Assembly: GCF_964204645.1 (NCBI RefSeq)
Contig: NC_134028.1
Coordinates: 16,499,653 to 16,563,652 of the forward strand
Length of the DNA stretch: 64,000 bases
Direction: 5' to 3'
From: Tubulanus polymorphus
Taxonomy: Eukaryota; Animalia; Nemertea
Below the pieces are notes generated by a model, which did no database searches, was not told the DNA's origin, and was given only the letters and a program-made list of their open reading frames with translations. The translations under genes were made by a program, and so were the position numbers. Positions 9,567 through 59,620 of the stretch are shown here, in pieces. Position 1 is the first letter of the stretch, and each line of letters starts with the position of its first letter.

Positions 9567-9726
9567 AGTAATAGGAAAATGACGCTTTCAGATATGGAGG
9601 TCGGAGGTCGAGACACCACTCATCACCACAAGTAATTTTTTTTCCTAATAAATAGGAGAGAGTGAACAACATACAGAATAAATTGATGTTAATGAAAATC
9701 AATATTATTGTACATATTGTAAACAA
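9567..9726 (+). repeat. Left TIR of Polinton element 1
   Basis: Reverse complement of ~19608-19767; the outer ~58 bp are identical and the inner part is imperfect. Confidence 0.9.
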
Positions 9727-9864
9727 TCTTTTTATATTAAATCTATCAACATTAACACTTCCCATTTTAAATACTTTTTTTAATACCATTGAATAACTAA
9801 CATTTCCAACTGATAGTAAGGCTCCATTATATAATCCAATTATTATCCACTTATTATCACTCAT
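9727..9864 (-). pseudogene. Truncated small Polinton membrane-protein gene (homolog of 59379-59620)
   Basis: MSDNKWIIIGLYNGALLSVG...KMGSVNVDRF matches the sequence at 59379+; runs directly into the TIR. Confidence 0.75.
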
Positions 9865-10069
9865 CTATCTCCAGTTCTACCCAGTTGCTCATGTTCTACT
9901 TTTGAGCAACTAGTTGTACTCAGTTGCTCTCATATCCGTCGATGCGAGCGCTCCATATCGGCAAAATATCGGTGATCATTATTTACGAATCGATCGTATG
10001 GATTTATTATTACAATTCATTTGAATCCGACGCCATACATGGCGATATAACGTGAACTTGCGCTAAGAG

Positions 10070-11037: not shown

Positions 11038-11317
11038 CGAATTCGCTTAGTTTCGAAAACTCCGCGCGCGCCAAACAATAATTGTATTGCGAAAACAATG
11101 ACTCGTCATATAGAACGGAGATTCTATTGTTTATTCTGGTTCGATAATAGCTATGACCACGTTCATTTTACACGTTCATTATATCTATATTTTCTTATCT
11201 ATTTTTGTTAGCATCTATATCCGATGATGGTGGGATGTTTTCAAAGTTTTTTGTGTTTTTGAATTCATGCAGGATAAGAATAGTACATTACTACTGCGAG
11301 ACTTATAATGCTGATCA

Positions 11318-14312: not shown

Positions 14313-14605
14313 TACAAAATAGATACTTATACAAAATACTATCCTAATTCATACACGTCTGCATGATTTAAATTCATCTTAATTTTTCATCAACTCATCC
14401 CTCTTCATTTGTTCTTTTCTTTAATTTGTTCTTTGTGTTCAAGGTGTCTGAACATCCGTTTTGATATACAGCCTTTATGGCTTTGTTCAGGCTCCTGTCA
14501 CCTCATTGTTTGTAATTTACTATTGTTATTATTAATCTTGTACATATTGATGGTGACAAATAAACTACTATACTATTCTTATAGAACCAAAATTAAAATA
14601 TCTAG

Positions 14606-15139
14606 ATGAAATATTTAATATATTTTCTATGGAAGATCATACACCAGAATATAAGCAATTGCTTGAAAAAATGAAAATGATAGAAAATAAAAATGGTGAA
14701 ATAACTAAAAAAGATATTATAAAAACAATTATTCCATCAACATTTAACACACAAGAAAAGAAAATGTATTTATATCTATTATTTAACGATTATTATAAAA
14801 AACCCTAAATTAACAGAAGAAGATATGGAAAATATAAAAGAAACATTCACAAACATATTAAAATATTATGTGGATAATAGAATAACAGATTCAATTAATT
14901 ATGAATTCTTTTTAAATAAGATTGTAAATTTTTTAAACATCGATATTATAATTCCATTTGATGAATTAACGAATAAAAAGAAACAAAGAGAGCGAGATGA
15001 AATGTGGTACAAGATAGAACTTTATTTAAATGAGAAAAATGAAATGGAAGAACCTAAACAAATTATACAAGAACAATTAAATGGAAAAGAAGAAACCAAT
15101 AGTGATTTCGAGTTTGATGATATTAATCCATTTCAATAA
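14606..15139 (+). pseudogene. Polinton hypothetical gene(s), convergent with pPolB
   Basis: AT-rich ORFs 14629-14808 and 14825-15139 inside the TIR-bounded element; no recognisable motif. Confidence 0.45.
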
Positions 15140-18100
15140 CCATAAGGTAATGTTTTTATACCATCATCTAAAATATGCCTTTTATCATCAAATGGATTCA
15201 AGCTAGTCTTTTCAACTTCATTAATGTACATCTCGTGATCTTCTGATCTTAAACAATTCATTTTATGTTTCATTACAATTGAGTTATATAAACACTTTAT
15301 ATAATCTTGAAATTCTATATGTTTATCAACCACATGTTTTGTTTAACTTTTTAGCCTCATGATAGCCTCATTTTCTATAACTGTACATTTTACTTCTTAT
15401 CCCAACAAATTCAATCATTTCATCACCCCCTAATTCATCTTTAAACTTACCAGGAATCTTTTCATTATCATTGCTAAATAGTTCATGATCTTTGGGATAA
15501 TTGCTAAAATCAAAATGATGTTTTATGTTTTTAAGTCTTTTGTTATATCATTTGTCTTGATTTTTAATATGTACGCATCCGTATTGGCCGCAATTAATGG
15601 ATTAATGGAAATCCACAGTTAAATGTTCCATCTTCAGTTGATAAATCATAGACATAATCTGATGGGATATATATTTCAAATAAATCTTTAACTTCTTCAG
15701 TTATTACTTTTTCTGTATGCCTTAGATTAAAACAATTTGGCATAGATTTAATCAATCCAATATTCACATCAAAACCTAATGAACTGCATAATATATGTAA
15801 TCCTGATAAAGCAACTTTTCCTTTTTGTGCAAATGTTATTTCTGGAGAACTCATAAATTTTTTAGCACCATCTGCAGCATAAAATCCAATGAAGAACCAT
15901 TTTCTTAAATTATCTTTTGCATTTAATACATAATCTGGAACTATCTTTTCTTAAGTTGAAGTATTACTTTTAACTATTGCATGAATATAGAATTCGTCTT
16001 TATATTTTATAGCAAAATCTTTAGGGTTATTAACGAGTATTCTATAAACTGCTGATGATTTCATAACATCCATGATTCTAAATGTTTTATGTGAATAAAC
16101 TTCTTTACAGAATTTCTTAATTCTTTCTAATAATTTCAAGTCTTGATTGCAAATAATAATACCAACAATATTTAAAATATATGTAAATAAAAATACCAAC
16201 AATATTTATTACCCCAAACACTATTATACACACCTGCTGAACCATCTCCCATGAAAAATCCTTTGATTAAATATTCTTTTTCTTCCAATGTTTCGGGTTC
16301 TATATTGAAAATATTATCAATTATTTCATTAAATGATATATGATTCCTTCTTTGGAAAAATCTTTTATGTAATAATTCATCTCCAATTTTTATATTAGTT
16401 GGTTTTATTTCATCACCATTTCGTTTAATTAAACTATGATCTTCTGTAACATCTACAAACCCTAATTTAGTTCTAACTCTATAGATTTTCTTATTTGTTT
16501 TATGCCTAATTTTATTCTTAAATTTTTTCCATCCATTTCTTGTCCAAACATCCATTAATTCATTTATTTGTATTAATTCTTTTTCACCATACGAATTATA
16601 ACATTCATTATGTTTTGGAATTATTTCTGAAATTCTTCTAATTAATATCTTACTATTACATTTTAATAATATTGGGTGTCAGCTGTTACAGAATCAAAAT
16701 ATAATATTTCAATATGCTTTTCCCCAAAAAGTGGTTGTAAAACATTATAATAAAAATCATACATAAATAATTTTGATACTTCTAAAACAGTTGAACCAAT
16801 GAATATAGGTTTATTAAATTTCATTGACGTTCTTTTTAATTTAACTGCTGTTAAATAATCTTCAAATCTTTTATTTCCTAAATGTCTAGGACTTGATTGT
16901 AAATGTCTGAATCGTTCCGAATTATTTACTAATTCAATATAACTTCTATTTCTAATATTTTCACATGTTTTACCATAAAAACTATTATTCATTAATTTGA
17001 AGAAATCTTTTTCACAATCTGTTTTTGATATGGTTCTCTGTTGTGTATTAAAATCTATATATTTTTCTAACAACTTCGATTGATTAAATTCAATATATCG
17101 ATGTACTTTCTTTAATTTCATTCCTTGTTTAAGATAAAATTTTAACATTCTATAATGAACAATATAATTGTATTTATTATTTTGAGTAAGTATTAATTTT
17201 TCTGTAAAAACATTTTTTAAGATTTTTTATCTTAAAGTGACTCCAAATATCTAATGTTCTATTAAAAACTTCATCTTTCATATACTCCTCTTTTAATTGA
17301 TCATAAAATTGTTATTTTAATAATTCTGTTTCATTAAAATCATCATGTGTTTTATAAAATGAATAAGGAATTGCGCCTTTATATCTCAATAATTTAAAAT
17401 CTTGTTCATTTGGGTAATAATGTCGAGTTATTACAAAATCATTATCAACTAAACTTTTTGCTAAATTATCTAATGAACTTGCTAGAAATCTATAAGAATC
17501 TAAAAATCTAATGCAACCAAATTAAAATGAAATATAATTTTCGGATGTCTTAGCTAATAGTTTAAAATCATATTTTCTTACATTTGTACCATTCATAGCA
17601 TTATATTCTTCTATTTCTTGGAGAATTGTGCCAAATTTTCCTGATAATTGTTTTATAAATAGATGGGTATCATAGCCCGATAAATTATGAAATAATATTG
17701 GTACGAAATTAACTTTCTTAGCTTGTAAATTACAATCTTCATGAGCAGCTCCACGATATTTTGCATTTAAATGATCATGATCTCTAACTTTTTTATCAAA
17801 TGAATGAAAACGTTTTTCACAGTAACAACAATGAGTTGAGTAATTAAAATAAATTTCATCTTCTTTTGTCATAACTATTCTTTTATTTTTGTTTAATAGT
17901 TTTGCAAAATCACTTTCTAATTCAATTATTTTGTTACAAAAATTATTAACTACATCTTCACCTCTAAAAGGAATATATTGACTTTGATATAATTCAGGAT
18001 AATTTGATTTTATGTAAATTCCATAAGCAGCAGCTCTTTGATGAACTTTTTTAATTGTGTTTATAATTGGTGGATTGAATCATATCTTCATTTAATTCAT

Positions 18101-19682
18101 TTCCTTTATCCATTGATTTTAAAATTTGCTTTTTATTATATATTTCTTTTCTATCTTGATTAGTTAATTCTTTATTCAACGATTCAAAATCCCCATAAAT
18201 TACAAATGGCACTCTATTTTTTAATTTATGATTAGTAAATTTCAATTTATAATCTTTTTCTGTTGGCATTATTAATTTACATAAATCTTTATTATCACAT
18301 AATTCTTTATGTTTTAGTAATGCATTTTCAGTTCTAAGTTTAGATAAACATTTTCAACATAAATATATTTTGCTATGACTGTTGAAATCACTTTCTGTTC
18401 TAAAGAATAAATCAATTTGTTTTAACCACATATAATGTTCATTTTCATCTTTTTTGTAATATAACAAATCTATAAAATTTTCATCGTCATAATGTTTTGT
18501 TAGATATAAAGCTTCTAATGTATAATCTTTAATATTTTCACCTTTTTTCTTTGGTAATTGCATTAATTCGAATACATTTATTTTTAAATCATTATCTTTT
18601 TCTATTTTAGGAATCATTTTTATAGTTACTGGATATTGATCAATTTCATATTTTTTTTCATATTTCTCGTAATTTGTCGTACAACAAACATTTTCCTGAG
18701 TTGGGTGTAAGCGACTAATAATTGACCATAGAAAACATTTATTATCTTTATTTTGAATATTTATTACTGCTTTTGTTGTAAATGGTAATTTAATATAAGA
18801 TGATGCTTTAATATCCTTTTCTGTTGTAAAGTTTGTGTCATTTTTAAACATTGTTTTACTTTTTGATGTTTTAATCATTTTTGTATTATAAACATTTAAA
18901 TCTAAAAATATAATTTCATTCAATGTTAAACCAGAACCCTCAAAATATCTTTCTTCAATATGTCGTTTAAATTCATTAAATATTTTTTCTAACCTCTCTT
19001 TTATTTGCGTTTTTGAAATTATTTCTTCAGAGAGTGTTTGAATATCATAATCCATTTCATCTTCTGACTTTAAAAAACTTACTTTCCCAGAAATACTAAT
19101 TTTTGGATATTCAACATCTGTTACCAAATCTAGTATTTTTTCCATGATTTCAATAAATTTACTATAATCTTCTATTGTTGTACATTTAAAAAATCTAAAT
19201 ATAATAGCTGCAGGACCAATTTTACTACGTAATGTTTCTAATATTTCAATTATATCTTTTATTTCTAGTGAATCGATATAATTTCTAACATTTTCCATGT
19301 AAGGTTTATTTGAAATGGATTTAGTTTTTGAAGTTGATTTTTTTACTTGTTGAGGTTTATCATCAAAATATTCTGATCCTCAAACATTTTTATTTGAATT
19401 TTGATAGTGTTTTTGTGATTCGAGATGTCTTTTATAATTCCTTTTTACTATAAATTCATTACAAACAATACATTTAATTTCATCTTTTTTCATATCATCT
19501 AATCGTTCTTTTCTTTCATTGGAATTTTCTGGAGTTTCAAAATCTATTACATTTTTCATATGATTTGTAGATTTTTCATGACGCGATTTTTGATATTTAT
19601 CAATGTATTTTTTACAATATGTACAATAATATTTATTTTCATAAACATCAATTTGTTGTGTGTGTTGTTCACTCTCTCCCAT
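15133..19682 (-). pseudogene. polB: Protein-primed family B DNA polymerase (pPolB) of Polinton 1, intein-containing, frameshifted, internal deletion near 17215
   Basis: N-terminal C2H2 fingers; SSYIKLP/INIQNKDNKCFLWSI; VIYGDFES (ExoI); RDHDHL..YRGAAH..CNL; FHNLSGYD (ExoII); KLMNNSFYGK (motif B); YFD|intein|TDAY; LNPFDDKR. Confidence 0.93.
15583..16692 (-). mobile_element. Intein with LAGLIDADG homing endonuclease in pPolB motif C (degenerate)
   Basis: Block A SVTADT(P)ILLK; block B VDVTEDHSL; block C LIKGFFMGDGS; block D KIVPDYVLNA; block E FFIGFYAADG; block F YVYDLSTEDGTFNCG; terminal Asn followed by Thr (IAAN|TDAY) once an 8-bp duplication is removed. Confidence 0.92.
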
Positions 19683-19767
19683 TTATAAGGAAAAGAAATC
19701 ACTTGTGATGATGAGTGGTGTCTCGACCTCCGACCTCCATATCTGAAAGCGTCATTTTCCTATTACT
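19608..19767 (-). repeat. Right TIR of Polinton element 1 (contains the pPolB start codon)
   Basis: Inverted match to 9567-9726; the ATG at 19682 lies inside it. Confidence 0.9.
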
Positions 19768-19773
19768 AACATG

Positions 19774-20422: not shown

Positions 20423-20608
20423 CTATATGTTCAATAGATTTTTATTCGATATATTGTAAAATGAGTTACATAAACTAATATTTACTAATTCTAAATCAAC
20501 ACAATTTCTAAATTCTCTATCTAGTTGTATCAATAAATAATGAGATTTATAATTTTTAAATCTTCTTGAATCAACAAATATTCTATATTCTTTTGATTTA
20601 TCTTGCAT
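20423..20608 (-). pseudogene. 5' part of penton/minor-capsid-like gene
   Basis: KEYRIFVDSRR...LCNSFYNIS is nearly identical to the 58245+ protein. Confidence 0.65.
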
Positions 20609-20625
20609 TTATTTTACGTATTTTT

Positions 20626-20964
20626 TCATTCGAAATCTATATCATGACATCCTCTTTCATTCTTACCTTTGTATATGAAATAGAAATCACCAGAACACAC
20701 TTCTAGATCTTCACTAGATAATCTATGAAATCTATCTGGTAAATTTGGTCTATATTTATATCTATTTCCTTTTAATCCTTCATATTCTAAGTGAATAACT
20801 AATTTATTACCATATCTATTAGTAATTGTTTCAATATTTGTAATTAAATATCTCTTATGTAATGTTAATTCGGTTAACTTTTTGAATTTATAATATACAG
20901 ATTTGACATTTGTAGTATCTTTTATTCTATCTAGGAATTCACTGTGTATTTGTTTACTCTCCAT
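20626..20964 (-). CDS. Small Polinton protein, possibly OB-fold ssDNA-binding (112 aa, open)
   Basis: Homolog of 57875-58230; beta-rich pattern FKKLTEL...YLITNIE...YGNKLVIHL...LPDRF; the fold is an inference. Confidence 0.55.
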   Translation of the reverse strand: MESKQIHSEFLDRIKDTTNVKSVYYKFKKLTELTLHKRYLITNIETITNRYGNKLVIHLEYEGLKGNRYKYRPNLPDRFHRLSSEDLEVCSGDFYFIYKGKNERGCHDIDFE

Positions 20965-22180
20965 TTATTATACATATTTTTTTATTAAAATTGATTTCAT
21001 TGATATTATATTCATTTATATAATGTTCATATTTGTGAATATTATTAGAGTAATAGGGTAAGTGTTGTTTCAGATTAAAGGTTGAAAGGTTGAGTGAGTA
21101 AAAAATAAAAATAAATTCGAGTGTGTATTTATTTTTATCTTTTATGAGCTCGACCTTTCGACTTTTGATCTGACACAAGACTTACCCTATTACTTACGTC
21201 AGGTCGATTTGTTTTATTGTGAGAAATGGCCGGTTATAGTTCAAAAAGACCGACAGGCCAATGGGTATCGCTTTCAAACACTTTTTAATGATAATTGGAC
21301 CGACAACTTCAATGAAAATATATGATGAAGTTTATTTCATTCAAAAAAAACTTATTTCACTGTATGAAAAACGCAGGTAGCCATAACGCGCGCGTCAACA
21401 TGAGCACATATGCTGTCACTGTAGCGTGTGCAGTGTGAGACACTTTGATCTGCCAGCACGCGCTTGCCTCGCGTAGTACATATATGGCTAGACGCCGACT
21501 GTTGCGATGCAATACGTCTGCAGTAAATGAGTAAACGCACGCCACATTGCCATACAACTCGGCGATAATTTCGGTCTTACTGTATGGCTTTCAAGGACAT
21601 TGTCTAGCAACCTTTCAAATTTAAAGACTCCCGCTGACTTTCCCGGCACAAAACAAGGAATTTAAGACCGCTACGGTACCGACCCTTTTGATATTTTTGA
21701 TATTATTGTGATCAACTTCTAGGCCTATCACCATTCAAACCAATATAATGTCAAATAATCTTGAATACAACGTAACCGGATCTATTTTGCAGCGTATTTA
21801 ACCCCATTTATCGTATCTTTCGTTAATTCAATGACTTTAAAAATGGTGCGCTTTGGTTCGCGGTAAACATACACGACACCATGCCGAACCACTCGTAATA
21901 GCTCTCTAAAAATAAGTAACCTATCGTACTACTCGTCTCGTAGTTCATAATTAAACATACCTGTAAATGCTGAAGGTATCGTAGTGAGAAATATCTTCTG
22001 ACACCTGACAAGAACGCCATTTATCGGATTTTGCATACCTTGCACTATATTTTCAATCTGAAAGCATATTGAAACGTAGGTACAAGAGTCAATTTACCTT
22101 ATTATTGTCTCACTGTGAATTCTACTAACATATCGAAGATATACACGCCACACAGTTGGGCTTAACTGTAATCTAGAATC

Positions 22181-22699: not shown

Positions 22700-23036
22700 A
22701 TTACAGTACAAAATGTTAATTCTAGTATATTAAATATTTTACCTTTGAAGAATGTGAACGAATTTGGAACGCAAATAAAATATTTATAATTTATCAGAAT
22801 GTGATTTTAAACCTTTTATTTCTCAATTTAATAATTTGAAATTAGAAATCATAATGGATATTTGATTGATTTAAATAAATTTCCTGTAATTTATGAATAA
22901 GTTATGAGATGTAAAGATTAATCATTATTTTTTTTATAATAGAAAATATGAATATTAATGTAGGACCGAGTATATCTTTTGGATTTGATTTTAAACATGG
23001 TAAAGAAATGAGAATTAAACATATGTGATGACTGAT
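22700..23036 (+). pseudogene. 3' part of penton-like gene and start of the next gene (Polinton element 3); continues after 30441
   Basis: Nucleotide homology to 58790-59110 (TTTGGAACGCAAATAAA...GTAGGACCGAGTATA). Confidence 0.75.
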
Positions 23037-31704: not shown

Positions 31705-33010
31705 CCGTCATACCCGACACTCCCAACATTCCCAACAATCCCTGACATACCCGGCACTCCCGACACTCCTGATACACCCGACATTCCCGACAATCCCGAC
31801 ATACCCGACTCTCCCAGGATAGTAAAGTATAGGTGCTGGGATAGTGAGGTATAGAGGTGCGGTTCGACTCCGGAATAGGTCAAAATAGTTCCATCGTGGA
31901 TGGTTTTCTTAAAAACTGTGAGTGGTTTGGTTTCAAATTGCCGTAAGAAACCTGATTGTCGACCATTTCTCAAGTCGACAATCGGCAATCAAAAACCTGA
32001 TTGCCGATTGTCGACCTGTTTTCGAGTCGGCAATCGGCAATCGGCAATCAGAAACCAATCACCCACAGCATCTATATCACCCTCACAATCGCAGCATCTA
32101 TATCACCCTCACAATCGCAGCATCTATATCGCCCTTACAATCACAGCATCTATGTCACCCTCACAATCACATCATGTATTGCACCCTCACAATCACGGCA
32201 TCTATTGCACCCTAACAATCACAGCATCTATTGCACACTCACAATCGCGGCATCATTATCGCCCTCACAATTACAGTTTCTATATCACCCTCACAATCAT
32301 AGCATCTATATCACCCTCACAATCACATCATCTTTATCGCCCTCACAATCATAGCATCTATTTCACCCGCACAATCGCAGCATCTATAGCAACCTCACAA
32401 TCGCAGTATCTATATCACCCTCACAATCACAGCATCTATATCGACCTCACAATCACAGCATCTATTTCACCCTCACAATCACAGCATCTATATCACCTTC
32501 ACAATCACAAAAAAATCACAACATCTATTTCACCCTCACAATCACAGTATCTATATCACCCTCACAATCACAACACTGAATTTTATGAAAGTCAATAAAG
32601 GGAAATGGTCGATTTCCGATTGTCGAACCGAGAAATGGTCGACTAGCAGGTTTCCGATTGCCGAATGCCGGGAATTGCATAGTGAGGTATAGATGTTCTC
32701 AATAATGAGGCATAGATGTGATGGGATAGTGAGGTATATAGATGATGCTGTAATGATAGTGAAGTATAAACGTGCTGGGCTAGTGAGGTATAGAGGTGCC
32801 GGGCTGGTGAGGTATAGAGGTACCGGGATAGTGAGGTATAGATGTGCCGGGATAGTCATGTATGGAGGTGCTGAGAGTCCCGGGTATGTCGGGCTTGCCG
32901 GGAGTGTCGGGTATTTAGGGATTGTCGGGAGTGCCTTGTACGTTGGGATTGTCGGGTATGTCGGGAGTGCCGGGTATGTCAGGAATGTCGAGTATGTCGG
33001 GAGTGCCGGA
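31705..33010. repeat. Minisatellite cluster: 9-bp (ACATACCCG), 26-bp (CACAATCACAGCATCTATATCACCCT), 24-bp (GGGATAGTGAGGTATAGAGGTGCC) and inverted 9-bp arrays
   Basis: Units read directly at 31705-31815, 32060-32575, 32680-32880 and 32880-33010. Confidence 0.9.
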
Positions 33011-33894: not shown

Positions 33895-36413
33895 ATATAG
33901 CTGCTTAGCAGAAATAACGGGTTTTCTGCACAGTCTTAGAATGCTGTTCAACGGTGGGTTTCTACAGAGCATTTGATAAGGCACAACATCAGCCATTACT
34001 AAATAGGCTATTATGAAACAGTATCAATGATAGGTCGCCCAAATGGCTCAGAAGTTATCTCTGAACGAAAACTTGTAGCCGAAATCAACGGAACGCCTCA
34101 TCTTGGAATAAGTCGGCCGTTCGACCAAAAAACTTAATGTTCCGACAAGAAAATCTTGTTCAAATGAAAACAATTCTGTTTGATCGAACAATACGCTTCG
34201 AATAAAAGCTATGTTGTTGTTGAAATGAAAAACTTTTGTCCCGGCAAAAAAATTGGTTGATCGAAAACAATTTTTTTCGAACGAATGTTTGAATGAAAAC
34301 AATTCTGTTCGATTGTACGAAATACTTAATACTTTTGGTTCGTAGAAAAAAACTTTTTACAATATACTTGTTCGAACGAAAAACTTAATGTTCTGACAAG
34401 AAAATTCTGTTCAAATTAAAACGATTCTGTTCGTTCGAACGATTGTTCGAATGAAAAACCTTTCGTTTGGACAAACAAAAGTTTGTTCAACTTTGTTCTA
34501 ACGATTTTTTTCAAATTGGTTCAATCGAACAGAATATTATTGGTACGAACGAAATAAATTTTGTGTCGACGAAAGAATTTTCAAGCGAAAGGTCTTTTGA
34601 ACAAAAAAAAAGATATTTCTGGAGCTCAGCAGTATAACTTAAAGCCGGACGTAGGTCGGCCTTGCAACGCGATGCGATCCTCGCGTTGCATCGCAAGTTT
34701 CGGTGCAATTCGGTTGCGATACGATTGTCAGCGACTGTGTGCGACTAGTTTCTGCCAGTAGCAAGAGCGCGTAGGTCGGTTGTGACAGTCGTGTCGCGTC
34801 GCAGAAAGTATAACCCGTGCGACTCCCTGCGACTGGCGTTGCTGACAGTCGCAACCCGTCGCAAGGGAGCGTAGGTCGATGAGTCGTTGCGACACAATCG
34901 TCGCTGGCGGTCGCAGTGAAAATTGTCGCAGTGAGTCACAAGCCGTCACAAAGCCAACCTACGTCCGCCTTAACTCATTAGGAATTAATGAAATACCAGT
35001 TTCATTTATGATGAAAAAACTCAAATGAAAAGTCTGGCATATAAAGCTGTCTGCTCAGACGATATTTTCAAAAAAAAACTTCATTTTTGCCAATAAAATT
35101 GATAATTGTGATTTATCGTTGCAAGTCAGAACCAGTTAATCACTAATTAACATGCATTTTAATAAATCTGATTCCCTCCTTTGAAGTGAACTTAGCTTTA
35201 ACCTAGTAGAGGCTACTAGCCTATGTAGGCCTATGTATATGCGTAGGCCTAACATCCGGACAGATTTGTCGTAGGCCTATTGAATAACAACCCTCCTAAA
35301 TATCGTAAATTTTGTTTTGAAGTTCAATCCAATGAGTCCGTTAATAACCGCAACATTTATACTGTGTTTGTTTGAGACAGTAAAGGTCAGTACCGGTAGG
35401 CCTAAAGCCTTAATGAGGTCACGTAAAACTCGATAAACACTTCAAGCGACACAGCGAACGATCTCCTTTCCCCCACAGCGAACGCTTACTCCGATTGTCA
35501 AGTGTGAGTCCAGCATACGGATAGGAGTGTGTTTTAACCTTGTATTTAGTAAAAACCTTGTGCATTTGACAATGATCGGTATGTACTGTAGGAAATATAG
35601 AGAATTGATGGTATTGATATAGAGGTTGAAGCCCGCGGCCGAATAAAGTAATATATTCTTTTATTTTGATACCTCGTCGACATAACAGCTTTTCTCCGCT
35701 ATATCTCTTCAAAGTGTTTAGTTTAGGCCTACGACTACGCGGTACACTAAAGATTTATTTTAGTAAATACACGGTTAATTTGGTAAAGAAAAATAGGTAT
35801 TGTTAAACTAACTCCTTGAAACCCGCAGCCAAATCACTGGTAGTAATACATTAATTTGTACTCGATTTGATTCTCACGATGAGGAGAAACTCGCAGCTGA
35901 TCCCCGGAACGACGATGTAGTGACACACGTCGATTCGTCGATGTTTACGGCTCGAAAGTGCTTTTAAAATCTAAAGTAGTAAATTTCCAGTGTATCGGTA
36001 ATATGATTTGATGAGGAAAATGGGCTATTGTTAAAATTTTGAAGACCGCGGCTGAATTTGAAACCGCGACAATAAATTAGTTCATTTATACTTGAATTGA
36101 TAATCGAAGTGACAATCGGCCTGCGGGTTGATTTCGGGATGACGACTCGAAAAACATCTCGCCCCATTGAATGGGGCTAAATTTTCGATGTTTACGGCCG
36201 GACAGTGCTTTTGTAACGATGATTCGTGAAAAAAACACGCGGAGTATTTGTAGATCTCAGCAGTGAGCTGAACGATATCATACGGATTGTATCGACAACA
36301 GCGGCAAGGCAACAAAGCCTTAGTTCATTTAGTGAAAATAGTGTGACATAAAATAATAATAAGAACACGCGAATCTCAATAGGGTTTTCTGTGATGTAAC
36401 AGAAAAACCCTAA
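33895..36413 (-). mobile_element. Helentron-type (HINE) non-autonomous element, present only in the left arm
   Basis: Empty site AACTATAAA|TTAATATGG in the right arm (~46255); hairpin AGGGTTTTCT...AGAAAAACCCT; subTIR plus CTGC-TTA-GCAG stem-loop; no TSD. Confidence 0.75.
34643..34970. mobile_element. PIF/Harbinger-like MITE nested in the HINE
   Basis: TIR AG(C/G)CGGACGTAGGT(C/T)GGC; TAA TSD at 34640-34642 and 34971-34973. Confidence 0.8.
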
Positions 36414-38907
36414 TTAATATGGATTGTAATCGAATGCAGAATAGATTACCAAATTAAAACCATCAACTGGCGATATGCTGAACTAACTCTTCAAACAACA
36501 ATCCTTTATTCTAAATCCAATCACTACAATTCTTAGCCCCTTATTAGACGATTGATACATAATATTATTATACTCGCAATTTCCAGATTTGAATTATAGT
36601 ACGCGCGCGGCGCACGTCTCCCAGTTTCATCTGTTTGTTTTTTAACAGCACGCGTGTGATAACTATGCTGTACGTTCTCTATTGATCGCTTCGCACGGAT
36701 TACCGTAGTACAATAGCGATATAAGGGTCTATTTACCTAGATAATTTCATTTTCCGCGCACGAGACACCAGATGAATTTAACAGCTCGTTCCCATGGTCA
36801 ACTTATTGTCAATTCTGCTATTAGAAGTAAAAGACCCACATTATGAAGAAAAAAATAGATGTTCATTTGACGTGCGACCAAATCATAGGCCTATGGCTAT
36901 CTTTAAAAACTGATTTATTATGCAGTTTATTACTTCAAACATTTAACACGTTTTCCATGCAACTATCCTTTGATACATTTACGCTTGTCTTTGATCCATA
37001 AGCATAATTCGCAACTATTTCACGGTCTCAAAGAACGCGACTTCACTTTGAAACAACTACTTAAGTTTTCTTCATTGTGAGTACTACAAGCGGTGTCAAC
37101 CATGATTGATGTTTTCAATCATGCGTTATCAAATTATATCCTTTTTTTCTTGAAAGAGAAAATTCGAAAGACGTACGTATAAGCCTATCGCTTAATTCGG
37201 GCTTAACAAAATTCGATGAATTTAAACTGTACGAAAGCGAATAAGACAAATTTGGATATAGTTCTGCTAATTACTGAATACTTCAAATTGGTACCATTAG
37301 TAACACTAATATTCAGAATTAAAAATGGTTTCAAATTTAAACTCAAGTGAAACTTAGGAAAACAAAATCAAGGAACGTTTAACAAAAATAAATGTACAGT
37401 CAACCCCGATATACCGCACCACATCAGTGCAGAACGATTCTGGCGGGGTATAGCAGTATGGTGGTAGATCAGGGGTGTTTAACAATGTTTTTGTAGATTG
37501 AAATAAAGGACCAATGGTCCAGTGGCTCGCCAAACTAGTGTGAAGTAAAAATCTGTCACGTAGGCTACCGGTATGCAAAAAATCATTTCATTGAAAATTA
37601 AACGATGACATCTTGATAAATTGATTATGGGCTTTTTGTCTGAACAAATGTTCATAATTGTAATACATCCCTTGAATGATGTAAAACAACTAAAACTATG
37701 AGTGACTCGATAAGATACGGTACAAACTTGATGAGAGCCTGGGTTTCATCGGAGGTTTTTTCATTTTTATCATACGGACCAATCAATGAAATGATTTTTT
37801 GCAAACCGGTAGCCTACGTGACAGATTTTTACTTCACACTAGTTTGGCGAGCCACTGGACCATTGGTCCTTTATTTCAATCTACAAAAACATTGTTAAAC
37901 ACCCCTGATCTACCACCATACTGCTATACCCCGCCAGAATCGTTCTGCACTGATGTGGGGCGGTATATCGGGGTTGACTGTACATTTATTTTTGTTAAAC
38001 GTTCCTTGATTTTGTTTTCCTAAGTTTCACTTGAGTTTAAATTTGAAACCATTTTTAATTCTGAATATTAGTGTTACTAATGGTAACAATTTGAAGTATT
38101 CAGTAATTAGCAGAACTATATCCAAATTTGTCTTATTCGCTTTCGTACAGTTTAAATTCATCGAATTTTGTTAAGCCCGAATTAAGCGATAGGCTTATAC
38201 GTACGTCTTTCGAATTAAGCTCCCAAGTTCTTCAAATTTGAGGCCAGTCAATGCCGGTTGCTGACGAAATAAAGTGTATTGAGTGACATGATTTTTAATA
38301 ATTTCACGATAGGATTGCTTTAAGTAGCTTACATCTTCACTCGGACAAATCGTAGTTACGCGCGACCTACACCGTGGCGCGCGTACTCTATAACTGATAC
38401 ATACACGCAGCGAACACGAGAGTTGTCGGCAACGCCGAGGTACACATCTGTTTGCGGTTTCAGCTATAGTACTGAATGACCATTTGTCCTATTTAGCTAT
38501 TTAGAATGTACTCTTGTTTATGCCTCCAGTCAAAACCTGGTTACACAGTGTGCACAGCCACAAGAGTATAAGGCTATGGGCCTATTGCCTACGCGACTGT
38601 ACACTACTGTTTTCAACGCGAACGCTCCACTGTGCCCCAGTGGCGCAAATAGCATTGCATTTTCACATGTGTTCTTTTGGACAGTAAAAAGATGCTGCAT
38701 AAAAAAACGTGCTAAAATAAATCGAATTTTTTACACTTTTTGGTAAATTTCTCAAAAATATAAAACCCACGACTTTCAACTTTGCGCACAATAAAGAAAA
38801 ACCAATAACGAAATATGTTTTTGCTTAATCCGTAATTCGCCCATTAGTAGCGAAATTACAGGCAAATGAAATTGCGTTTGAGTGAGCTAAAAATAGCTTC
38901 AAGCGTA

Positions 38908-44559: not shown

Positions 44560-47500
44560 AACACATGTGAAAATGCAATGCTATTTGCGCCACTGGGGCA
44601 CGGTGGAGCGTTCGCGTTGAAAACAGTAGTGTACAGTCGCGTAGGCAATAGGCCCATAGCCTTATACTCTCGTGTTCACTGCGTGTATGTATCAGTTATA
44701 GAGTACGCGCGCCACGGTGTAGGTCGCGCGTAACTACGATTTGTCCGAGTGAAGATGTAAGCTACTTAAAGCAATCCTATCGTGAAATTATTAAAAATCA
44801 TGTCACTCAATACACTTTATTTCGGCAGTAAACGGCACTGACTGGCCTCAAATTTGAAGAACTTGGGAGCTTCTGTCCTGATTGGTCCGTATGATAAAAA
44901 TGAAAAAACCTCCGATGAAACCCAGGCTCTCATCAAGTTTGTACCGTATCTTATCGAGTCACTCATAGTTTTAGTTGTTTTACATCATTCAAGGGATGTA
45001 TTACAATTATGAACATTTGTTCAGACAAAAAGCCCATAATCAATTTATCAAGATGTCATCGTTTAATTTTCAATGAAATGATTTTTTGCATACCGGTAGC
45101 CTACGTGACAGATTTTTACTTCACACTAGTTTGGCGAGCCACTGGACCATTGGTCCTTTATTTCAATCTACAAATACATTGTTAAACACCCCTGATCTAC
45201 CACCATACTCTCTATACCGCCAGAATCGTTCTGCACCGATGTGGTGCGGTATATCGGGGTTGACTGTACATTTATTTTTGTTAAACGTTCCTTGATTTTG
45301 TTTTCCTAAGTTTCACTTGAGTTTAAATTTGAAACCATTTTTAATTCTGAATATTAGTGTTACTAATGGTACCAATTTGAAGTATTCAGTAATTAGCAGA
45401 ACTGTAGCCAAATTTGTCTTATTCGCTTTCGTACAGTTTAAATTCATCGAATTTTGTTAAGCCCGAATTAAGCGATAGGCTTATACGTACGTCTTTCGAA
45501 TTTTCTCTTTCAAGAAAGAAAGGATATAATTTGATAACGCATGATTGAAAACATCAATCATGGTTGACACCGCTTGTAGTACTCACAATGAAGAAAACTT
45601 AAGTAGTTGTTTCAAAGTGAAGTCGCGTTCTTTGAGACCGTGAAATAGTTACGAATTATGCTTATGGATCAAAGACAAGCGTAAATGTATCAAAGGATAG
45701 TTGCATGGAAACGTGTTAAATGTTTGAAGTAATAAACTGCATAATAAATCAGTTTTTAAAGATAGCCATATGATTTGGTCGAGACGTCAAATGAACATCT
45801 ATTTTTTTCTTTATAATGTGGGTCGTTTACTTCTAATAGCCGAATTGACAATAACTTGACCATGGGAACGAGCTGTTAAATTTATCTGGTGTCTCGTTCG
45901 CGGAAAGTGAAATGATCTAGGTAAATAGACCCTTATATATCGCTATTGTACTACGGAAATCCGTGCGAAGCGATCAATAGAGAACGTACATCATAGTTGT
46001 CACACGCGTGCTGTTAAAAAACAAACAGATGAAACTGGGAGACGTGAGCCGCGCGCGTACTATAATTCAAGGATGATAAAATCTGGAAATTGCGAGTATA
46101 ATAATATTATGTATCAATCGTCTAATAAGGGGCTAAGAATTGTAGTGATTGGATTTAGAATAAAAGATTGTTGTTTGAAGAGTTAGTTCAGTATATCGCC
46201 AGTTGATGGTTTTAATTTGGTAATCTATCCTGCATTCGATTGCAATCCATATTAATTTATAGTTAGTATTTTATTTTTGACAATACTCAATGATTTGAAT
46301 GTGAGCCACGGGCCATTTGGTCCGTTATTTTGTTCTTTCATTTCTTGAAAACTGTTAATTTATGGAATGAAATATCCTATTATATGATTATTATTAAATC
46401 TAATGCACATTACCAATTGGATAGCTTAAATGAATTATTAATTCAATAAAAGTTACTGATCTTCTTGAATTCATATCTTTGGTTCTTTTTTATCATTCCA
46501 AGCCTCCAGTTTAAAAATTGATCACAGTTGGAAAATACTAATTATTTAGGCCCAACCAGGTTTTTTGTTTCGAATGTTCACTTTTAAAATATACATGAAA
46601 TATTTTTTTTCCGACTTAACAACCAGGAAAAGAATTATTTTCGTTTTATCGCCTTCCGCCGTCACCCAATCGATTATAACCAAAATTATGAAATTTAATT
46701 CAGACCTCATGTGTCCGAACAAAGTTTCGTAGTAGGCCTAGTTCTTTCCCATGCTTTGGCTGTGGCATATATTTCTATTATATCTGCAGAAATAATCATA
46801 AATGTGAGTAAATTATCTAAGGACTGAAAAATGCATTTTCAATGCATTTTCAATCACTTGGATATAACTTATACCCCTTATGTCCACTTTATGATTGAAA
46901 AATATGAAAAGAAAATTAGGCTTATATTTACGGTTGTACTGTTTTCTATTTTGTATGGACTACACTCTAAAATGCGTATAAAAACCCACATTTTATTTCC
47001 TTATAGACTTGTCGGTCAGTTAGTACAAGAATAAAATACCATAGAGGGTCAAGTCCAGTATCTTGTGAAATAGTGCGTAGATGTAGTTTTTCTAATTTTG
47101 AAAAGGTGTGATTCTGCCAAGCTTATCAAATTTAGTCCGGCACTCCCGACATACTCGACATTCCTGACATACCCGGCACTCCCGACATACCCGACAATGC
47201 CAACGTACAAGGCACTCCCGACAATCCCTAAATACCCGACACTCCCGGCAAGCCCGACATACCCGGGACTCTCAGCACCTCCATACATGACTATCCCGGC
47301 ACATCTATACCTCACTATCCCGGTACCTCTATAGCACGTTTATACTTCACTATCATTACAGCATCATCTATATACCTCACTATTGAGAACATCTATACCT
47401 CACTATGCAATTCCCAGCATTCGGCAATCGGAAACCACGATGGAACTATTTTTACCTATTCCGGAGTCGAACCGCACCTCAATACCTCACTATCCCAGCA

Positions 47501-52700: not shown

Positions 52701-53256
52701 GTCAACATGAAAATATTGATACGTAAATCGAATCCATATCATAAGCATACTTATTATTGTACAAATGAAATTAGGAAATACGACAAATTAACAGTTCATT
52801 AATACTTAAATAATGCTTAAAGTTATCGCACAGTTCACATCGCTCGCAAGCAGCTCGCAAGTTAAAAAGATTTCATCGCCAATTAAAATATATTACAAGC
52901 TCGAAGTTAAGATATTCCAAATTAAGAGTTCTTTATTTCTAATATTTTATCGCACAGCACAGTGAAATATACCACAAGTCAAAAAGAGTTATTTAGTTCG
53001 AATTAAAAGATAGTATGAATAAAAAGTTCATTAATTTCATTTATTCTATGAATTAATTTAAAGATTTATTTCAACAAAAGAGTTTAATGCACAGTTCAAA
53101 TATATTGCAGTTGTATTGTGGATGAATATGTTTGAATAAATATCGTGCTTTCAAATGTTCTTGAAAAATCGCCAAGTGAGGATTTTACCTAGGGGATTTT
53201 TATCTACAACCATCTAAAATGCCCCAGGCCCAACATCCAGTAGGTTTATGGCGAAA

Positions 53257-53708
53257 AAATCAAATACATTTATTTTTAGATTATTATCTCTTTCTATTTT
53301 TGGGATATTTTTAAATCTGACAGGATAATTATCTATCTTATGATTATTTTCAAATGGTTTATAATGTTTTAATCTAAAACTATGTTGTTTATAATCTTCA
53401 ACTGGGTGTAAGTAACTAATTATTGACCATAGAAAACATTTATCATCTTCATTTTGTACATTTATAACAGCATTAGTTTTAAATGGTAGTTTGATATAAC
53501 TTGATCCATTTATATTATCATCTTTATAATATGATAAATTATTTTCATCAATTGGTTTCGATTTAGTTAATTTATTATATTTTGTATTGTATACATGTAA
53601 AGTCATAAATATTATTTCATCAAATATTAATCCAAATCCTTCAAAATATTTCTCTTCTATTTTACTTTTTATTTCACTATAACATTTATTTAATTTATCA
53701 TCTATATA
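53257..53708 (-). repeat. Inverted duplicate of pPolB segment 54413-54864
   Basis: ORF 53214-53606(-) is nearly identical to the C-terminal part of ORF 54275-54874(+). Confidence 0.9.
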
Positions 53709-53761
53709 TTATAGAATACATCATATTTTGAAATTTAAAAAAAAGTCAGTTACCCTTTAAA

Positions 53762-56700
53762 ATGGAAGCAGATAAGAAGTACTCCCGTCCAACATGTAAA
53801 ATCAATATAGATAAATCTAAAAAAGCAAGACATAATAAAACTAAATCTCACTTAGAGAATAAATAGAAATTAGAATATAAAGATGATATATTAGAAACTA
53901 AATTAGATGAAATGAAGAATGAAAAAGAAATATATAAATGTGATACATGTAATCAATCATTCAGTTACAAAAGATATTATGAACAACATTTAAAATCTAA
54001 AAATCATATTAGAAATATTAATAATGATATTTTAGGTGAAGATTATTTTGATAAAGATAATGATAAGAAACATAAGACAATTAAAAAAATGAAAAATAAA
54101 TTAAAAAATAAAAGACCATACATGGAAGATGTTAGAAATTATATTAATTCATTAGATAATAATAAAGAAATAGAGATAACTGAAGCATTTAAAAGTGATA
54201 TTGGTCCAGCAGCTATCGAGTTTAAATTTTATAAAGGTAAAACGTTAGAAGAAAATTAAAAACATTTAGAAAATATGAAAAATATTATAAAAATAATTAC
54301 TGATGTTGAATACCCTAAAATTAGTATATCAGTTAAAAGTAAATTTATAAAATCTGAAGATAAACCAATATATAATATAAATTCCCATTCACAACATATT
54401 ATTTCAAAACAACATATAGATGATAAATTAAATAAATGTTATAGTGAAGTAAAAAGTAAAATAGAAGAGAAATATTTTGAAGGATTTGGATTAATAGTTG
54501 ATGAAATAATATTTATGACTTTACATGTATACAATACAAAATATAATAAATTAACTAAATCGAAACCAATTGATGAAAATAATTTATCATATTATAAAGA
54601 TGATAATATAAATGGATCAAGTTATATCAAACTACCATTTAAAACTAATGCTGTTATAAATGTACAAAATGAAGATGATAAATGTTTTCTATGGTCAATA
54701 ATTAGTTACTTACACCCAGTTGAAGATTATAAACAACATAGTCTTAGATTAAAACATTATAAACCATTTGAAAATAATCAAAAGATAGATAATTATCCTG
54801 TCAGATTTAAAAATATCCCAAAAATAGAAAGAGATAATAATCTAAAAATAAATGTATTTGATTTATTCAAATAACCAAAAACAAAAGGTAATAATACAAC
54901 ACATTATACATTAGAACCTTTATATCTATCAAAAGATTATGATTCAAATGGTGTTATAGATATATTATATTATGCAAATCATTTTATGTGGATTAAAAGA
55001 AATGATTCATTTTTCAAATCAGAAAATGATTTTGAAAATAAAATATATCTATGTAGAAAATGGTTAAATAAATTCAGTAATGAAAGTGCATTATTAAATC
55101 ATAAAAGGTTATGTGATAATCATGATTATTGTAAAATGATTTTACCAAATGGAAAAGATAAAATATTAGAATTCAAGAAATATTTTTACAAAAATAAAGT
55201 ACTATTTGTAATATATGGTGATTTTGAATCACTAAATAAAGAATTAACTGATCAAGATAGAAAATAAATATATTATAAAAGAAAGAAATTAAATTCTAAT
55301 CAAAATGATGTAATTGATTATTCAGATCCTCTAATAACAAATACTATTAAAAAGATTCATCAAAGTGCTGCAGCTTTTGGGCTATATATTAAATCTGATT
55401 ATCCAGAACTAATTGAAAGTGAATATTATCATTATAGAAATGAAAATGTTATCAATCATTTTTGTAACTTATTAATTGAATATGAAGTAAAATTTCATAA
55501 ATTGTTAAATGAAAATACATGTACAGATAATAATTATGACAGAAGATAAAGAAGAATTTTAGTTTGCAGATAAATGTTTTTATTTTGAAAAGATATTTAA
55601 TCTAAAAGATAAAAAAGTAAGAGATCATAATCATTTGAATGGAAAGTTTAGAGGCGCAGCGCATGAGAATTGTAACTTACAAGCAAAGAAAATCAATTTT
55701 GTTCCAGTTATATTTCATAATTTATCAGGATATGACGCACATTTATTTATCAAACAGTTATGCCATAAAATAGAAGAAATCAATAATGAAATAGAAATAT
55801 TAAATTCAAATAGATCAAAAGATAAAATACCAACTTCTAAATTTAAGATATTAGCTAAAACATCTGAGAATTATATATCTTTCCAATTTGGGCGTCTAAG
55901 ATTTATAGATTCATATAGATTTTTAAGCAGTTCATTAGATAATTTATCAAAATCATTAGTTGATGATGAATTAAATATATTAAACTCTTTCCATGCTAAC
56001 TTCCTGAAAATCAGATCCCGAGACTGTGCTAACTTTATTTCGAAAAAAAATTTTTTTCGAAAAATATTGGGTTCTCAAACTTCTAGACGGTCTAATACGC
56101 TTCCCTACACTAAAATATGATGATTCAGCTTGTTTCTGATGATCTAGCAATTCTGGGGTCGTTAGGGGCCCCCAAAATGTCCAAAAAAAATTTGACCTAC
56201 TTTCGGGTCATTCGGGTACCCCTACCCCTAACTGCAGCTTCATATTCTCTCTATATATCTCCATTATATCCACTGCGCTATGCATAGACACCGTATACCA
56301 GCCGCTGTGTCTACTTATAAAGCTTTCAATTTTGCCCTACTTTGTTTACACAACTTGACCTCAATTCACCGATAATGACTTTCGTGACCTAGATAGATTT
56401 TATTCATACACCCGCCAGCGAACTCGAACAAAAACAAGTCCCTGGGGTTGCCGGGACTACCAGGCATACATACAAGCCGTATAAGCTTTATACATTTTAT
56501 GCCATTTAGACAGTAAGGGGATATATAGGTCATCCAACTGTGACGTGGCGTCACACCCGCACAAACTAGCGTCCGGTCACAGTTAGCATGGAAAGCAACA
56601 TTATCCAAATAATGATGATTTTCAATTAATGAGATATAAAGGAGCAATTCCATATTCATTCTATAAAAATCATAATGATTTCAATATAACTGAATTATTA

Positions 56701-57815
56701 AAAGAACAATTCGATGATGAATTAAGATCCGAATGTGTTAAAGATGAAATTTATAAAAGAACATTGAATATTTGCAATCATTTTGGGATGAAAAATCATG
56801 GACAATTAGTAGATTTATATTTAAAATCAGATGTATTATTATTAACTGATATATTTGAAAGGTTTAGAGATCTAAAATATTTTAATATAGATCCATGTCA
56901 TTGTTATTCGAGTCCAGGTTTAACTTGGGACTGTGGTTTAAAATTTACAGATATAAAAATGGATTTGTTAACAAATATAAATCAATTACGAGGAGGAGTT
57001 TCAGGTGTATTGGGTGATAGATATTTCAATATAAATGATAACCCTGGATATAAGTTATTATATATAGATGCAAATAATCTATATGGTTGGGCAATGATGG
57101 ATTACATATCCTAAATTCATTGGTAACAGAATATTTGATGAAAATTTAGCTGCAGTTAAAATGAGGAGAACTTCTATGAAATTTAATAAACCAATTTATG
57201 TTGGGGCAACAGTTTTAGAAATATCAAAATTATTAATGTATGAATTATATTATAACGTATTACAACCTCATTTTGGAGAAAAGCATATAGAAATCTTATA
57301 TTTTGATACTGACAGTTACATATAAAAGATTAAAACTAATAACCTAACAGATGATTTAAAAACATTAAAACATCATTTTGATTTCAGTAACTATCCAAAA
57401 GATCATGAATTGTTTAACAAAGATAATAAAAAGGTGCCCGGTAAATAAAGATGAATTAGGTGGTGAAGAAATGATTGAATTTATAGGCATTAGGTCTAAA
57501 ATGTATTCATATAAAACTAAAACTCATGAAGCTAAAAAGTTAAAAGGAATAACCAAAAGTGTAGTAGAAAAGAATATTCATTTCAAAGATTATATCAATT
57601 GTATATTCAATGAAGAAGTTAGAAAACATAAGATGAAATGTTTAAGATCAGAAGATCACGAGATGTTTATTGAAGAGATAGAGAAGATAAGTTTGAATCC
57701 TTTCGATGATAAAAGATATATTTTAGATGATGGAATTCATACAGTCGCTTATGGTTGCAATTTAGATGAATACTTAAAGTTCAAAAGAGAAGAAACAAAG
57801 AGAATGAGATTATGA
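53762..57815 (+). pseudogene. polB: pPolB of Polinton 2, intein-free, with deletion near 57105
   Basis: C2H2 fingers; INVQNEDDKCFLWSI; VIYGDFES; RGAAHENCNL; FHNLSGYD; YLKSDVLLL (ExoIII); YIDANNLYGWAM (motif A); LYFDTDSY at 57296-57319; LNPFDDKR. Confidence 0.93.
55984..56595. mobile_element. TTAA-inserting non-autonomous TIR element (piggyBac/Kolobok-like) inside pPolB
   Basis: TTAA-ACTCTTTCCATGCTAACT ... AGTTAGCATGGAAAG; removing it restores ELNILK|QHYPNNDDFQLMRYKG; right tip eroded. Confidence 0.7.
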
Positions 57816-57874
57816 AAAGGATTCTAACATGTTAATCGGCTTTAATTCAATTTTAATAAAAATATTCATAATAA

Positions 57875-58230
57875 ATGGAGAGTAAACAAGTACACAGTGA
57901 GAACAACAAATCATTTCTAGATGGAATAAAAGATATCACAAATGCTAAATCAGCAGATTATAAATTTAAGAAGTTAAATGAACACTAACAATTCATAAGA
58001 AGTATTTAATTACTAATATTGATAGAGTTACTAACAAATATGGAGATAAATTAGTTATCCACTTAGAATATGAAGGGTTGAAAGGAAATAAATATAAATT
58101 CAGAACATATTTACCAGATAGATTTCATAGATTATCTAGTGAAGATCTGGAAGAATTATGTTCTGGTGGATTCTATTTTATATGTAAGTGTAAGAATGAA
58201 AAAGGGCACCATGATAAAGATTTCGAATAA
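57875..58230 (+). pseudogene. SSB/OB-fold-like small protein (homolog of 20626-20964), frameshifted
   Basis: MESKQVHSE...YGDKLVIHLEYEGLKGNKYK...LPDRFHRLSSEDLE. Confidence 0.7.
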
Positions 58231-58244
58231 AATATGTAAAATAA

Positions 58245-59002
58245 ATGGTAGAATTAAAAGAATATACAATATTTGTTGATTCAAGAAGACTTACAAATTA
58301 TAAATCACATAATTTACTAGTACAATTAGATAGAGAATTTAAGAATTGTGTAGATTTAAAATTAGTAAATGTAAGTTTATGTAACTCTTTTTATAATGTA
58401 TCGGATAAAAGTCTTGATCATAATGCTTTAATGATTCACGTTAGGAGAAATAATAAATGGTATCATCTATTCATAAAACCAGGATTATATAATTTAGAGA
58501 CTTTAGCGCAAGAAATTAATAGAAAAGCTAAGACAAAAATGGGCGCAGCTGCTGGATTTGGAATTAAATTTATTAAAAGTGATTTTAATAATAAATTAAG
58601 AATAAAGTTAGCTAATGAAGAACAGCATAAATTTATAGTGAGAAAACCATAAGCTAAAATGTTAGGAATTGCACCAAATAAACTTCATGCAAATGTTGAT
58701 AGTATAGCAAATATAATGCCTTTTACACATTTTATATTTATTGCAATTTAATTAACCCTGTAAAAACATTTGAAGCAACTAAAGATACAATTTGTAATTC
58801 TGGTTTATTAAATATTTCACCATTAACAAATGTTGAACAATTTGGAACGCAAATAAATTATAATTTAGCTGAATGTGATTTTAAACCTTGTATTCCAAAA
58901 TCTAATAATTTTAGATTAGAAATTAGAAATCATAATGGATATTTAATTGATTTGAATAACTTTCCTGTGATATATGAATTAGTTATAAGATGTAGAGAGT
59001 AA
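58245..59002 (+). pseudogene. Putative minor capsid protein (penton)
   Basis: L..VSLCNSFYNV...IKPGLYNLETL..EIN pattern and C-terminal LEIRNHNGYLIDLNNFPV.YEL, as in Polinton single-jelly-roll pentons. Confidence 0.65.
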
Positions 59003-59018
59003 TTTTTTTGATATATAA

Positions 59019-59378
59019 ATTAATATAATAGTAGGACCGAGTATATGTTTTGGATTTGATTTTAAACGTGAGAAAGAAATGAAATTTGATATCAATGATG
59101 TAATAACACATATCAAAAATATTGCATTTTTGAATGAAACAACATTTGAATATGAAACAACAATAAATAAAGAAACTTTTAATGTAGAAAATATTACCGA
59201 TTTAATTAGAGAGTCTTTAAGATTTTATGAATTAGATGAAGATTTTATTATTGATGATATTAGAAAAATAATAACTGAAATATATGATAATCATAAAAGT
59301 AGTAATGAAATAAATGTTGAAATAATCATAACTAAGGTAACTAAATATTTTGAGGATAATTATTTTTTTGATAAATAA
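59019..59378 (+). pseudogene. Polinton hypothetical acidic protein (start codon mutated)
   Basis: Open frame; the homolog at 22948+ starts with ATG. Confidence 0.55.
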
Positions 59379-59620
59379 ATGAGTGATATAAGTGGATAAT
59401 AAATGGATTATATAATGGAGCATTATAATCAGTTGGAACTGTTGGTTATACAATGGTATTTAAAAAGTATTTAAAATGGGAAGTGTTAATGTTGATAGAT
59501 TTGATATCAATGATATTTCAAAATTAACGTTAGCAGTTACTTTATCTAATTTGACTATTCATTATTTGGAAAAACAAAAATATATTCCTCCTATATAAAT
59601 GCATCAAATTTTTACTAAAT
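59379..59620 (+). pseudogene. Small Polinton membrane protein
   Basis: ATAAATG start; hydrophobic; homolog at 9727-9864. Confidence 0.6.

Follow-up and report, generated by a model that had tools for sequence, protein, structure and literature searches.

An uninterrupted pol-c intein site in a decayed Polinton polymerase, and a decayed intein-bearing cousin in the same window

Two genes for protein-primed Polinton polymerases (pPolB) lie in the window, the whole stretch of 64,000 nucleotides that was analysed. The gene in Element 1 (E1) carries an intein in its YxD/TDS motif (the slash marks the insertion point), and the gene in Element 2 (E2) reads through the same site. A sequence-only reading had taken them for sister polymerases that form a natural donor/target pair for homing. 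Are they such a pair, and how is the empty site in E2 to be understood?

Two decayed elements and one insertion site

The features concerned were the following.

9567 to 19767, minus strand: E1, an internally deleted Polinton/Maverick with 161-bp terminal inverted repeats (TIRs; 150/161 identical) that start with AG
10070 to 14312 (limits approximate), plus strand: LINE retrotransposon inside E1, with an RVT_1 match
14723 to 15136, plus strand: VLTF3-like ORF piece in E1 (Pfam PF04947, E=4e-7)
15138 to 19682, minus strand: E1 pPolB pseudogene with intein; stops, frameshifts and about 195 residues (motif A region) missing
15583 to 16692, minus strand: intein in the E1 pPolB; Ser1, block B TEDH, GFFMGDGS and GFYAADG, block F VYDL, terminal Asn, +1 Thr
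53762 to 57815, plus strand: E2 pPolB pseudogene in five pieces; six stops inside the matched pieces and about 190 residues (motif B region) missing
57290 to 57325, plus strand: empty pol-c intein site of the E2 pPolB (YFD/TDS), junction 57307/57308; the uninterrupted sequence, then an in-frame stop
58245 to 58652, plus strand: DUF5901 ORF of E2 (Pfam match below the cut-off)

The E2 polymerase read HFGEKHIEILYFD-TDSYI and then a stop, without interruption. GAT (57305-57307) was followed directly by ACT GAC AGT (57308-57316), and the in-frame stop lay at 57323-57325, just after the empty site. The intein-free allele and its GAT/ACT joint at 57307/57308, as first described, are exact in the sequence. 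In E1, on the minus strand, LFGEKHIEILYFD was followed by an intein of 1,110 nt (16692 to 15583) that begins with Ser and ends with Asn, and then by ACG GAT GCG (TDA).

The two sites share the same position in the polymerase and lie 40.6 kb apart, as the earlier figure of about 40 kb had it. The near-identity of the upstream exteins also held (12/12, 28/30 and 53/60 nt). Downstream of the site the corresponding values were 4/9, 20/30 and 43/60 nt, and the codons differed in the way reported, ACG GAT GCG (TDA) in E1 vs ACT GAC AGT (TDS) in E2, including the change from Ser to Ala. The intein boundaries drawn from this comparison agreed with those in intact intein-bearing relatives (xxD/S...N/TDS).

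The insertion was in frame at YxD/TDS with an empty allele known, as expected of a class 1 intein of the pol-c type, and the difference in size between intact intein-bearing and empty relatives was exactly that of the intein (1537 vs 1191 aa, and 1604 vs 1256 aa). Other class 1 hallmarks were present: Ser at position 1 (Ser/Cys in class 1), TxxH in block B, Asp in block F, a terminal Asn and Thr at +1 (Ser/Thr/Cys in class 1). Blocks B and F are splicing motifs. The penultimate His was replaced by Ala. This position held His in only 82/216 related inteins, Lys in 102/216 and Ala in 1/216, so that His is not defining in the clade of the E1 intein. The Pfam model Intein_splicing matched the E1 piece (E=0.005) and P0122 (2e-9).

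Two LAGLIDADG motifs with acidic ends (GFFMGDG and GFYAADG) were seen in E1, and P0001, P0006, P0007 and P0122 had Pfam matches to LAGLIDADG_3 or Hom_end. The C-terminal piece of the E1 intein, searched alone against Pfam, gave no match. A PDB sequence search gave weak matches only, the best being PI-PkoII (E=0.003). The E1 intein was 59% identical to the intein of the intact P0001, and its splicing and LAGLIDADG motifs were still recognisable, but the copy was disrupted by frameshifts and a stop. Being frameshifted, E1 is now unable to make the endonuclease. The intein/C-extein junction (15571-15591) was 62% GC within an element of 22-27% GC, and resembled two adjacent imperfect palindromes.

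Long TIRs starting with AG and a 6-bp target-site duplication, the marks of a Polinton/Maverick, were found in E1, where the duplication was a perfect AACATG (9561-9566 and 19768-19773); the ends of E2 were not identified. E1 had inserted within a Ty3/gypsy element, and the only recognisable genes left in it were the polymerase and the VLTF3-like piece. The LINE and Ty3 elements nearby suggest that the host is an animal. The E1 polymerase aligned in four pieces to an intact relative, P0129, with 61% identity. The E2 polymerase, which holds a foreign insert at about 56000-56593, was identical to the same intact empty relative at 838/1109 aa (76%). PF03175 was matched in both elements, the fragments scoring below the cut-off.

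E2 runs from about 53.7 kb almost to the end of the window, with other decayed genes reaching to about 63800. A start at 63650 is possibly capsid-like, by resemblance. Among the ORFs scanned there was no Pfam match to an integrase, packaging ATPase, protease or capsid; E1 has internal deletions, and E2 has decayed and is truncated close to where the window ends.

Some further features of the elements were observed. The inverted repeats of E1 (9567-9727 and 19607-19767) include the first 25 or so polymerase codons, so the start of the gene is copied at the far end of the element. E1 may have arisen by deletion or template switching. A third Polinton was represented by pieces (20426-20997 and 22707-23016) that were 81-82% identical to the 57844-59086 region of E2. 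These pieces adjoin the Ty3 element into which E1 was inserted, an arrangement of nested insertions. Directly upstream of E2, 53253-53710 was a recent inverted duplicate (98.7%) of 54411-54868 in its polymerase. The host DNA between E1 and E2 contained tandem repeats and large inverted near-identical blocks (94-97%; 32064-32575, 2739-3245, and 36412-38216 vs 44879-46257).

The empty site among relatives, and E1 and E2 as a pair

The state of the site was read in 121 proteins. It was empty in 107 and held an intein in 12 (11 pPolB and one giant-virus PolB); two were unreadable. All seven metagenome loci with this flank pattern were empty. An uninterrupted site in E2 is therefore no surprise. 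A short-protein search gave 110 empty, no intein and 10 unreadable among 120, a count biased by a query that itself spans the empty site. In viral contigs, a search for the junction pattern found nothing, a search with P0006 found no relative, and a search with P0394 found three distant loci, of which two could be read at the site and were empty.

Raw reads of organism A contained both states. About 443 reads spanned the empty site, varying at third-codon positions, and 74 broke into one uniform intein start (0.98 agreement). Read depth inside the intein was 159-248. The intein-bearing share of the copies was roughly a third, a rough value since the two read analyses used different thresholds (85 and 80). 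The runs contained only 0.22-0.28 of the window's words, and organism A may therefore be a relative and not the species of the window. No joint that skips the intein was seen among the best 15 of 73, so that the E1 family may have rare copies without the intein, and the E2 family rare copies with it.

E1 and E2 were homologous far above chance (blastn E=0, and 7e-47 beside the site). At the nucleotide level they agreed at 1434/2040 positions N-terminally, at 152/186 beside the site and at 338/440 C-terminally. These values of 70-82% place them in two families. On the DNA tree of the flanking exons, E1 nested among six empty relatives, and its sister was the empty allele L042 (100/98) and not E2. 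The protein tree agreed on E1 and L042, although the E1 branch in protein trees is artificially long because its pieces are broken. The description of the two copies as sister polymerases was thus not borne out.

Nor did they form a natural donor/target pair. An active pair has a translatable donor and a near-identical target allele. Here both ORFs were broken upstream of the site, and each had lost about 190 core residues. That both genes are pseudogenes had gone unmentioned in the sequence-only reading. What the window preserves is a fossil from each of two co-resident families, and not a donor at work on its target. The E2 polymerase, decayed and intein-free, is an ordinary one with the site in its default state, and it is likely that this empty copy is not a live homing target.

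The families behind the two fossils may still have met as donor and target. The E1 family would then have been the donor here and the E2 family a susceptible target, with an endonuclease able to cut the E2 site, and E2 would have died uninvaded. The shared site fits this, with its 12 identical upstream bases and with two of the three downstream codons differing only at wobble positions. Two bases at -11/-9 are common to E1 and E2 and absent from their closest relatives, and both families are multicopy in organism A. Other observations argue against it. Apart from the broken frames, only four of the nine bases directly downstream agree, and the divergence of the families makes a poor substrate for homologous repair. 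Empty alleles stay in the majority in the reads, where the intein start is one uniform sequence. No intein joined to an E2-type downstream flank was found among the organism A read rows listed, with 51 more loose ends beyond those. We consider this history decidedly unlikely.

A short segment of E1 (9731-9868) was 91% identical to 59375-59510 in E2, though the polymerases are about 70% identical. This suggests mosaicism between the two families.

Distribution and origin of the intein

The inteins closest to that of E1 were in other protein-primed polymerases: P0001 at 59%, and P0122, P0005, P0006 and P0007 at 43-46%. Giant-virus inteins reached up to 42%. All 37 viral-contig matches to the N-terminal half of the intein were examined. 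Most were large PolB ORFs, many of them on giant-virus MAG contigs, with the intein at YGD/TDS.

On an intein tree of 41 rows, eight of the ten pPolB inteins, including E1, formed one clade (100), and P0124 and P0125 nested apart, among giant-virus PolB inteins. The pPolB inteins therefore have two separate origins on this tree, which indicates at least two entries. To judge from its branching, the intein appears to have entered Polintons from the giant-virus pol-c pool at least twice.

The polymerases themselves gave a scattered picture. On an extein tree of 42 rows, built without the 15 residues on either side of the site, intein presence needed eight changes, at least six of them forced by starred branches; an earlier tree of 63 rows needed six. 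Lateral spread had been proposed, and it would have been contradicted by intein-bearing copies forming one clade. A single clade was rejected (AU p=1.2e-4), and the intein-bearing copies were polyphyletic. The extein of P0007 had only 24-30% local identity to the others, as a member of a distant polymerase group, and its intein was 49% identical to that of P0001. In P0124 vs P0125 the intein identity was 81% and the extein identity 70%. The intein seems to have crossed between polymerase groups.

Repeated precise loss of an old intein could be another source of the patchy tree. In the full form of this explanation, the intein is an old resident inherited vertically and precisely lost many times, and the altered flanks of empty sites (next section) are scars left where gene conversion with unrelated empty copies removed it, and do not reflect resistance. 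Most other pPolB pairs had similar intein and extein identities, which fits vertical descent, and the intein tree roughly tracks the extein tree among pPolBs of the HNH type. If an empty copy served as the template, conversion would delete the intein and alter the flanks, as seen in L038 and in the clusters of P0122 and P0125. On the other hand, many independent precise losses would be needed around E1 and P0001, and P0007 and the second origin (P0124/P0125) are left unexplained. The endonuclease motifs are also intact in open full-length ORFs, which argues for continuing homing. We regard vertical descent with losses as very unlikely, and prefer lateral spread.

The YxD/TDS site and the allele name pol-c are taken from published work (PMC549080, which describes the allele for Mimivirus, and PMC1635734). 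The pPolB inteins resemble the pol-c inteins of giant-virus PolB (Mimivirus, HaV01) and archaea in the YxD/TDS insertion, the Ser start, the Asn end and the +1 Thr. They also share the size of about 340-355 aa with a LAGLIDADG domain, at 36-49% identity. Their host differs, being not an RNA-primed PolB but the protein-primed polymerase (PF03175) of a Polinton that is integrated in the genome of a eukaryote, likely an animal. They also differ in that eight of ten form their own clade. Direct homing between such distant PolB genes was judged implausible in PMC549080.

Polinton/Maverick pPolBs with HNH or VSR inserts belong to the same polymerase family, and the relatives here have an Endonuclease VII-like domain. 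Those inserts have been suggested to derive from intein invasions (PMC11161782). They were described without splicing motifs; the E1 insert, in contrast, is a full intein with splicing blocks, in a catalytic motif and with empty alleles. Inteins of viral-like polymerases on algal and protist nuclear scaffolds, and intragenomic mobility in Anaeramoeba, are likewise cases of virus-borne inteins in nuclear DNA and of movement between paralogues (PMC10710043). Those cases are giant-virus insertions or host genes in microbes, whereas the intein here is carried by an element that integrates and is multicopy.

The main text of PMC10710043 did not contain the words polinton, animal or metazoa. The word intein did not occur in that of the vertebrate Maverick paper PMC8097293 or in PMC10748475. 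General mentions were found in three other papers (PMC12220804, PMC3671162, PMC13768754). The literature covered gave no account of a Polinton polymerase with a pol-c intein; subscription papers were mostly outside its scope, and supplements could mention such inteins. So far pol-c inteins have been described from archaea and giant viruses, and here they were intact and polymorphic in Polinton polymerases.

The same intein family was also seen at a D/TDG site in other long proteins (P0088, P0349, P0367, P0382-P0384), a look-alike second target. P0088 carries topoisomerase II-type Pfam domains. Three Polinton polymerase fragments (P0395, P0397, P0406) were filed under Bartonella by their source, and are likely animal-host contamination of Bartonella assemblies.

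Residues around the site and a possible history of homing

Two clusters at 90% identity contained both intein-bearing and empty members. They consist of database proteins, and the members of the two kinds may or may not share one genome. In the first, the intein-bearing P0125 and the empty P0535 differed at 3 of 1,256 extein residues, all of them at the site (-2, +4 and +5). The clade consensus FTD/TDSL (63/71) was kept in P0125 and lost in P0535, which makes the empty P0535 the derived form.

In the second cluster, that of P0122, the best 15 of 136 members comprised seven with the intein (HYMD/.../TDSF), five empty and three fragments. In all five empty members read, 8 of 20 residues around the site differed from an intein-bearing member. 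Their total differences were 17, 21, 26, 31 and 65 (the last being P0531) over about 1,190 residues. Four of the five had TDA.

A similar patch was seen between two empty loci. Over 1,951 coding bases L038 and L040 showed 17 differences. Fifteen of these fell within 52 nt (-42 to +9), a patch that in L038 encodes TDA with the same Ala codon as E1. L038 is one metagenome contig, in which this patch could be an assembly chimera. In near-identical pairs, then, the differences are clustered at the site. As a control, ten all-empty clusters showed clustering at the site in 1 of 51 comparisons, and that one was the L038 protein.

The sequence-only reading had suggested that the TDA of E1 could reflect co-conversion or a resistant allele. 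Its general idea gained real support from these relatives. TDA as a mark of intein donors did not stand: it followed none of 216 pol-c-like inteins and occurred in 2 of 107 empty-site proteins. TDA is therefore mainly a variant of empty alleles near invaded lineages, and E1 is unusual in having it behind an intein.

Co-conversion from a giant-virus donor was rejected. Compared with six giant-virus loci, the E1 flanks agreed at only 8-11 of 15 positions upstream and 6-7 of 15 downstream, and TDA was absent behind the 216 inteins.

Between -38 and +77, three of the four quartets had no site supporting E1 and L042 as sisters, and the fourth had one. E1 and L042 differed at 5/9 positions from +1 to +9 (p=0.024). 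The contrast of this tract was significant in two of the four quartets, with windows chosen post hoc, so that a converted tract in E1 itself is suggestive only.

The downstream codon differences, including Ser to Ala, might instead reflect decay and ordinary divergence between dead copies. A divergence of a few percent separates E1 from other copies (TIRs 150/161), and 27 of 432 nine-base windows in the C-extein alignment had at least five differences. Decay would hardly place TDA with the identical Ala codon in the open ORF of L038, or TDA in most of the empty P0122-cluster members read. These genes also make little use of that Ala codon (0-3 of 15-19 Ala codons). We consider decay an unlikely explanation.

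Probably, then, E2 is an ordinary decayed empty polymerase and E1 a decayed cousin with a giant-virus-type pol-c intein that likely spreads among Polintons by endonuclease homing, the two not being an active pair. In homing, as described in PMC2814812, an endonuclease recognizes 12-40 bp and cleaves the empty allele, and copying occurs during repair. The LAGLIDADG domain would here cut empty YxD/TDS sites once two elements share a cell. With an intein-bearing copy as the repair template, the intein would be brought in together with a short flank (co-conversion). Altered empty sites (TDA, TDST and CDS types) that escape cutting would arise by repair from an empty copy of divergent sequence, or by selection.

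The E1 lineage likely gained the intein after its split from the empty L042 and then multiplied as one family. The E1 copy would later have been deleted and decayed, while the E2 family stayed empty. The TDA codons of E1 were likely part of a converted tract.

More tentatively, and with slightly less than even confidence, Polintons of animal genomes may carry a naturally occurring homing gene drive. An intein derived from giant viruses would invade the active-site codons of the polymerase, jump between polymerase groups and repeatedly select escape alleles. These would have changed residues around the catalytic motif and would be spread by short gene conversion. The window would then keep one invaded and one uninvaded family side by side. 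Such a system would offer a natural parallel to resistance against engineered homing drives.

The presence of intact, polymorphic pol-c inteins in Polinton polymerases implies that Polintons and giant viruses have shared a cell, with at least two recombination events at a conserved motif of the active site, and that different Polinton families still exchange DNA. The pair in the window adds little itself except fixing the intein boundaries. Because the near-identical intein-bearing and empty pairs differ in the target alone, short oligonucleotides would suffice to test homing, co-conversion and natural resistance directly.

Other variants of the empty site were TDC in the cluster of P0146, the sister group of the intein-bearing P0121, and TDG in six fragments (P0432, P0440, P0457, P0469, P0473 and P0478). 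The TDC and TDG sites are candidate escape alleles.
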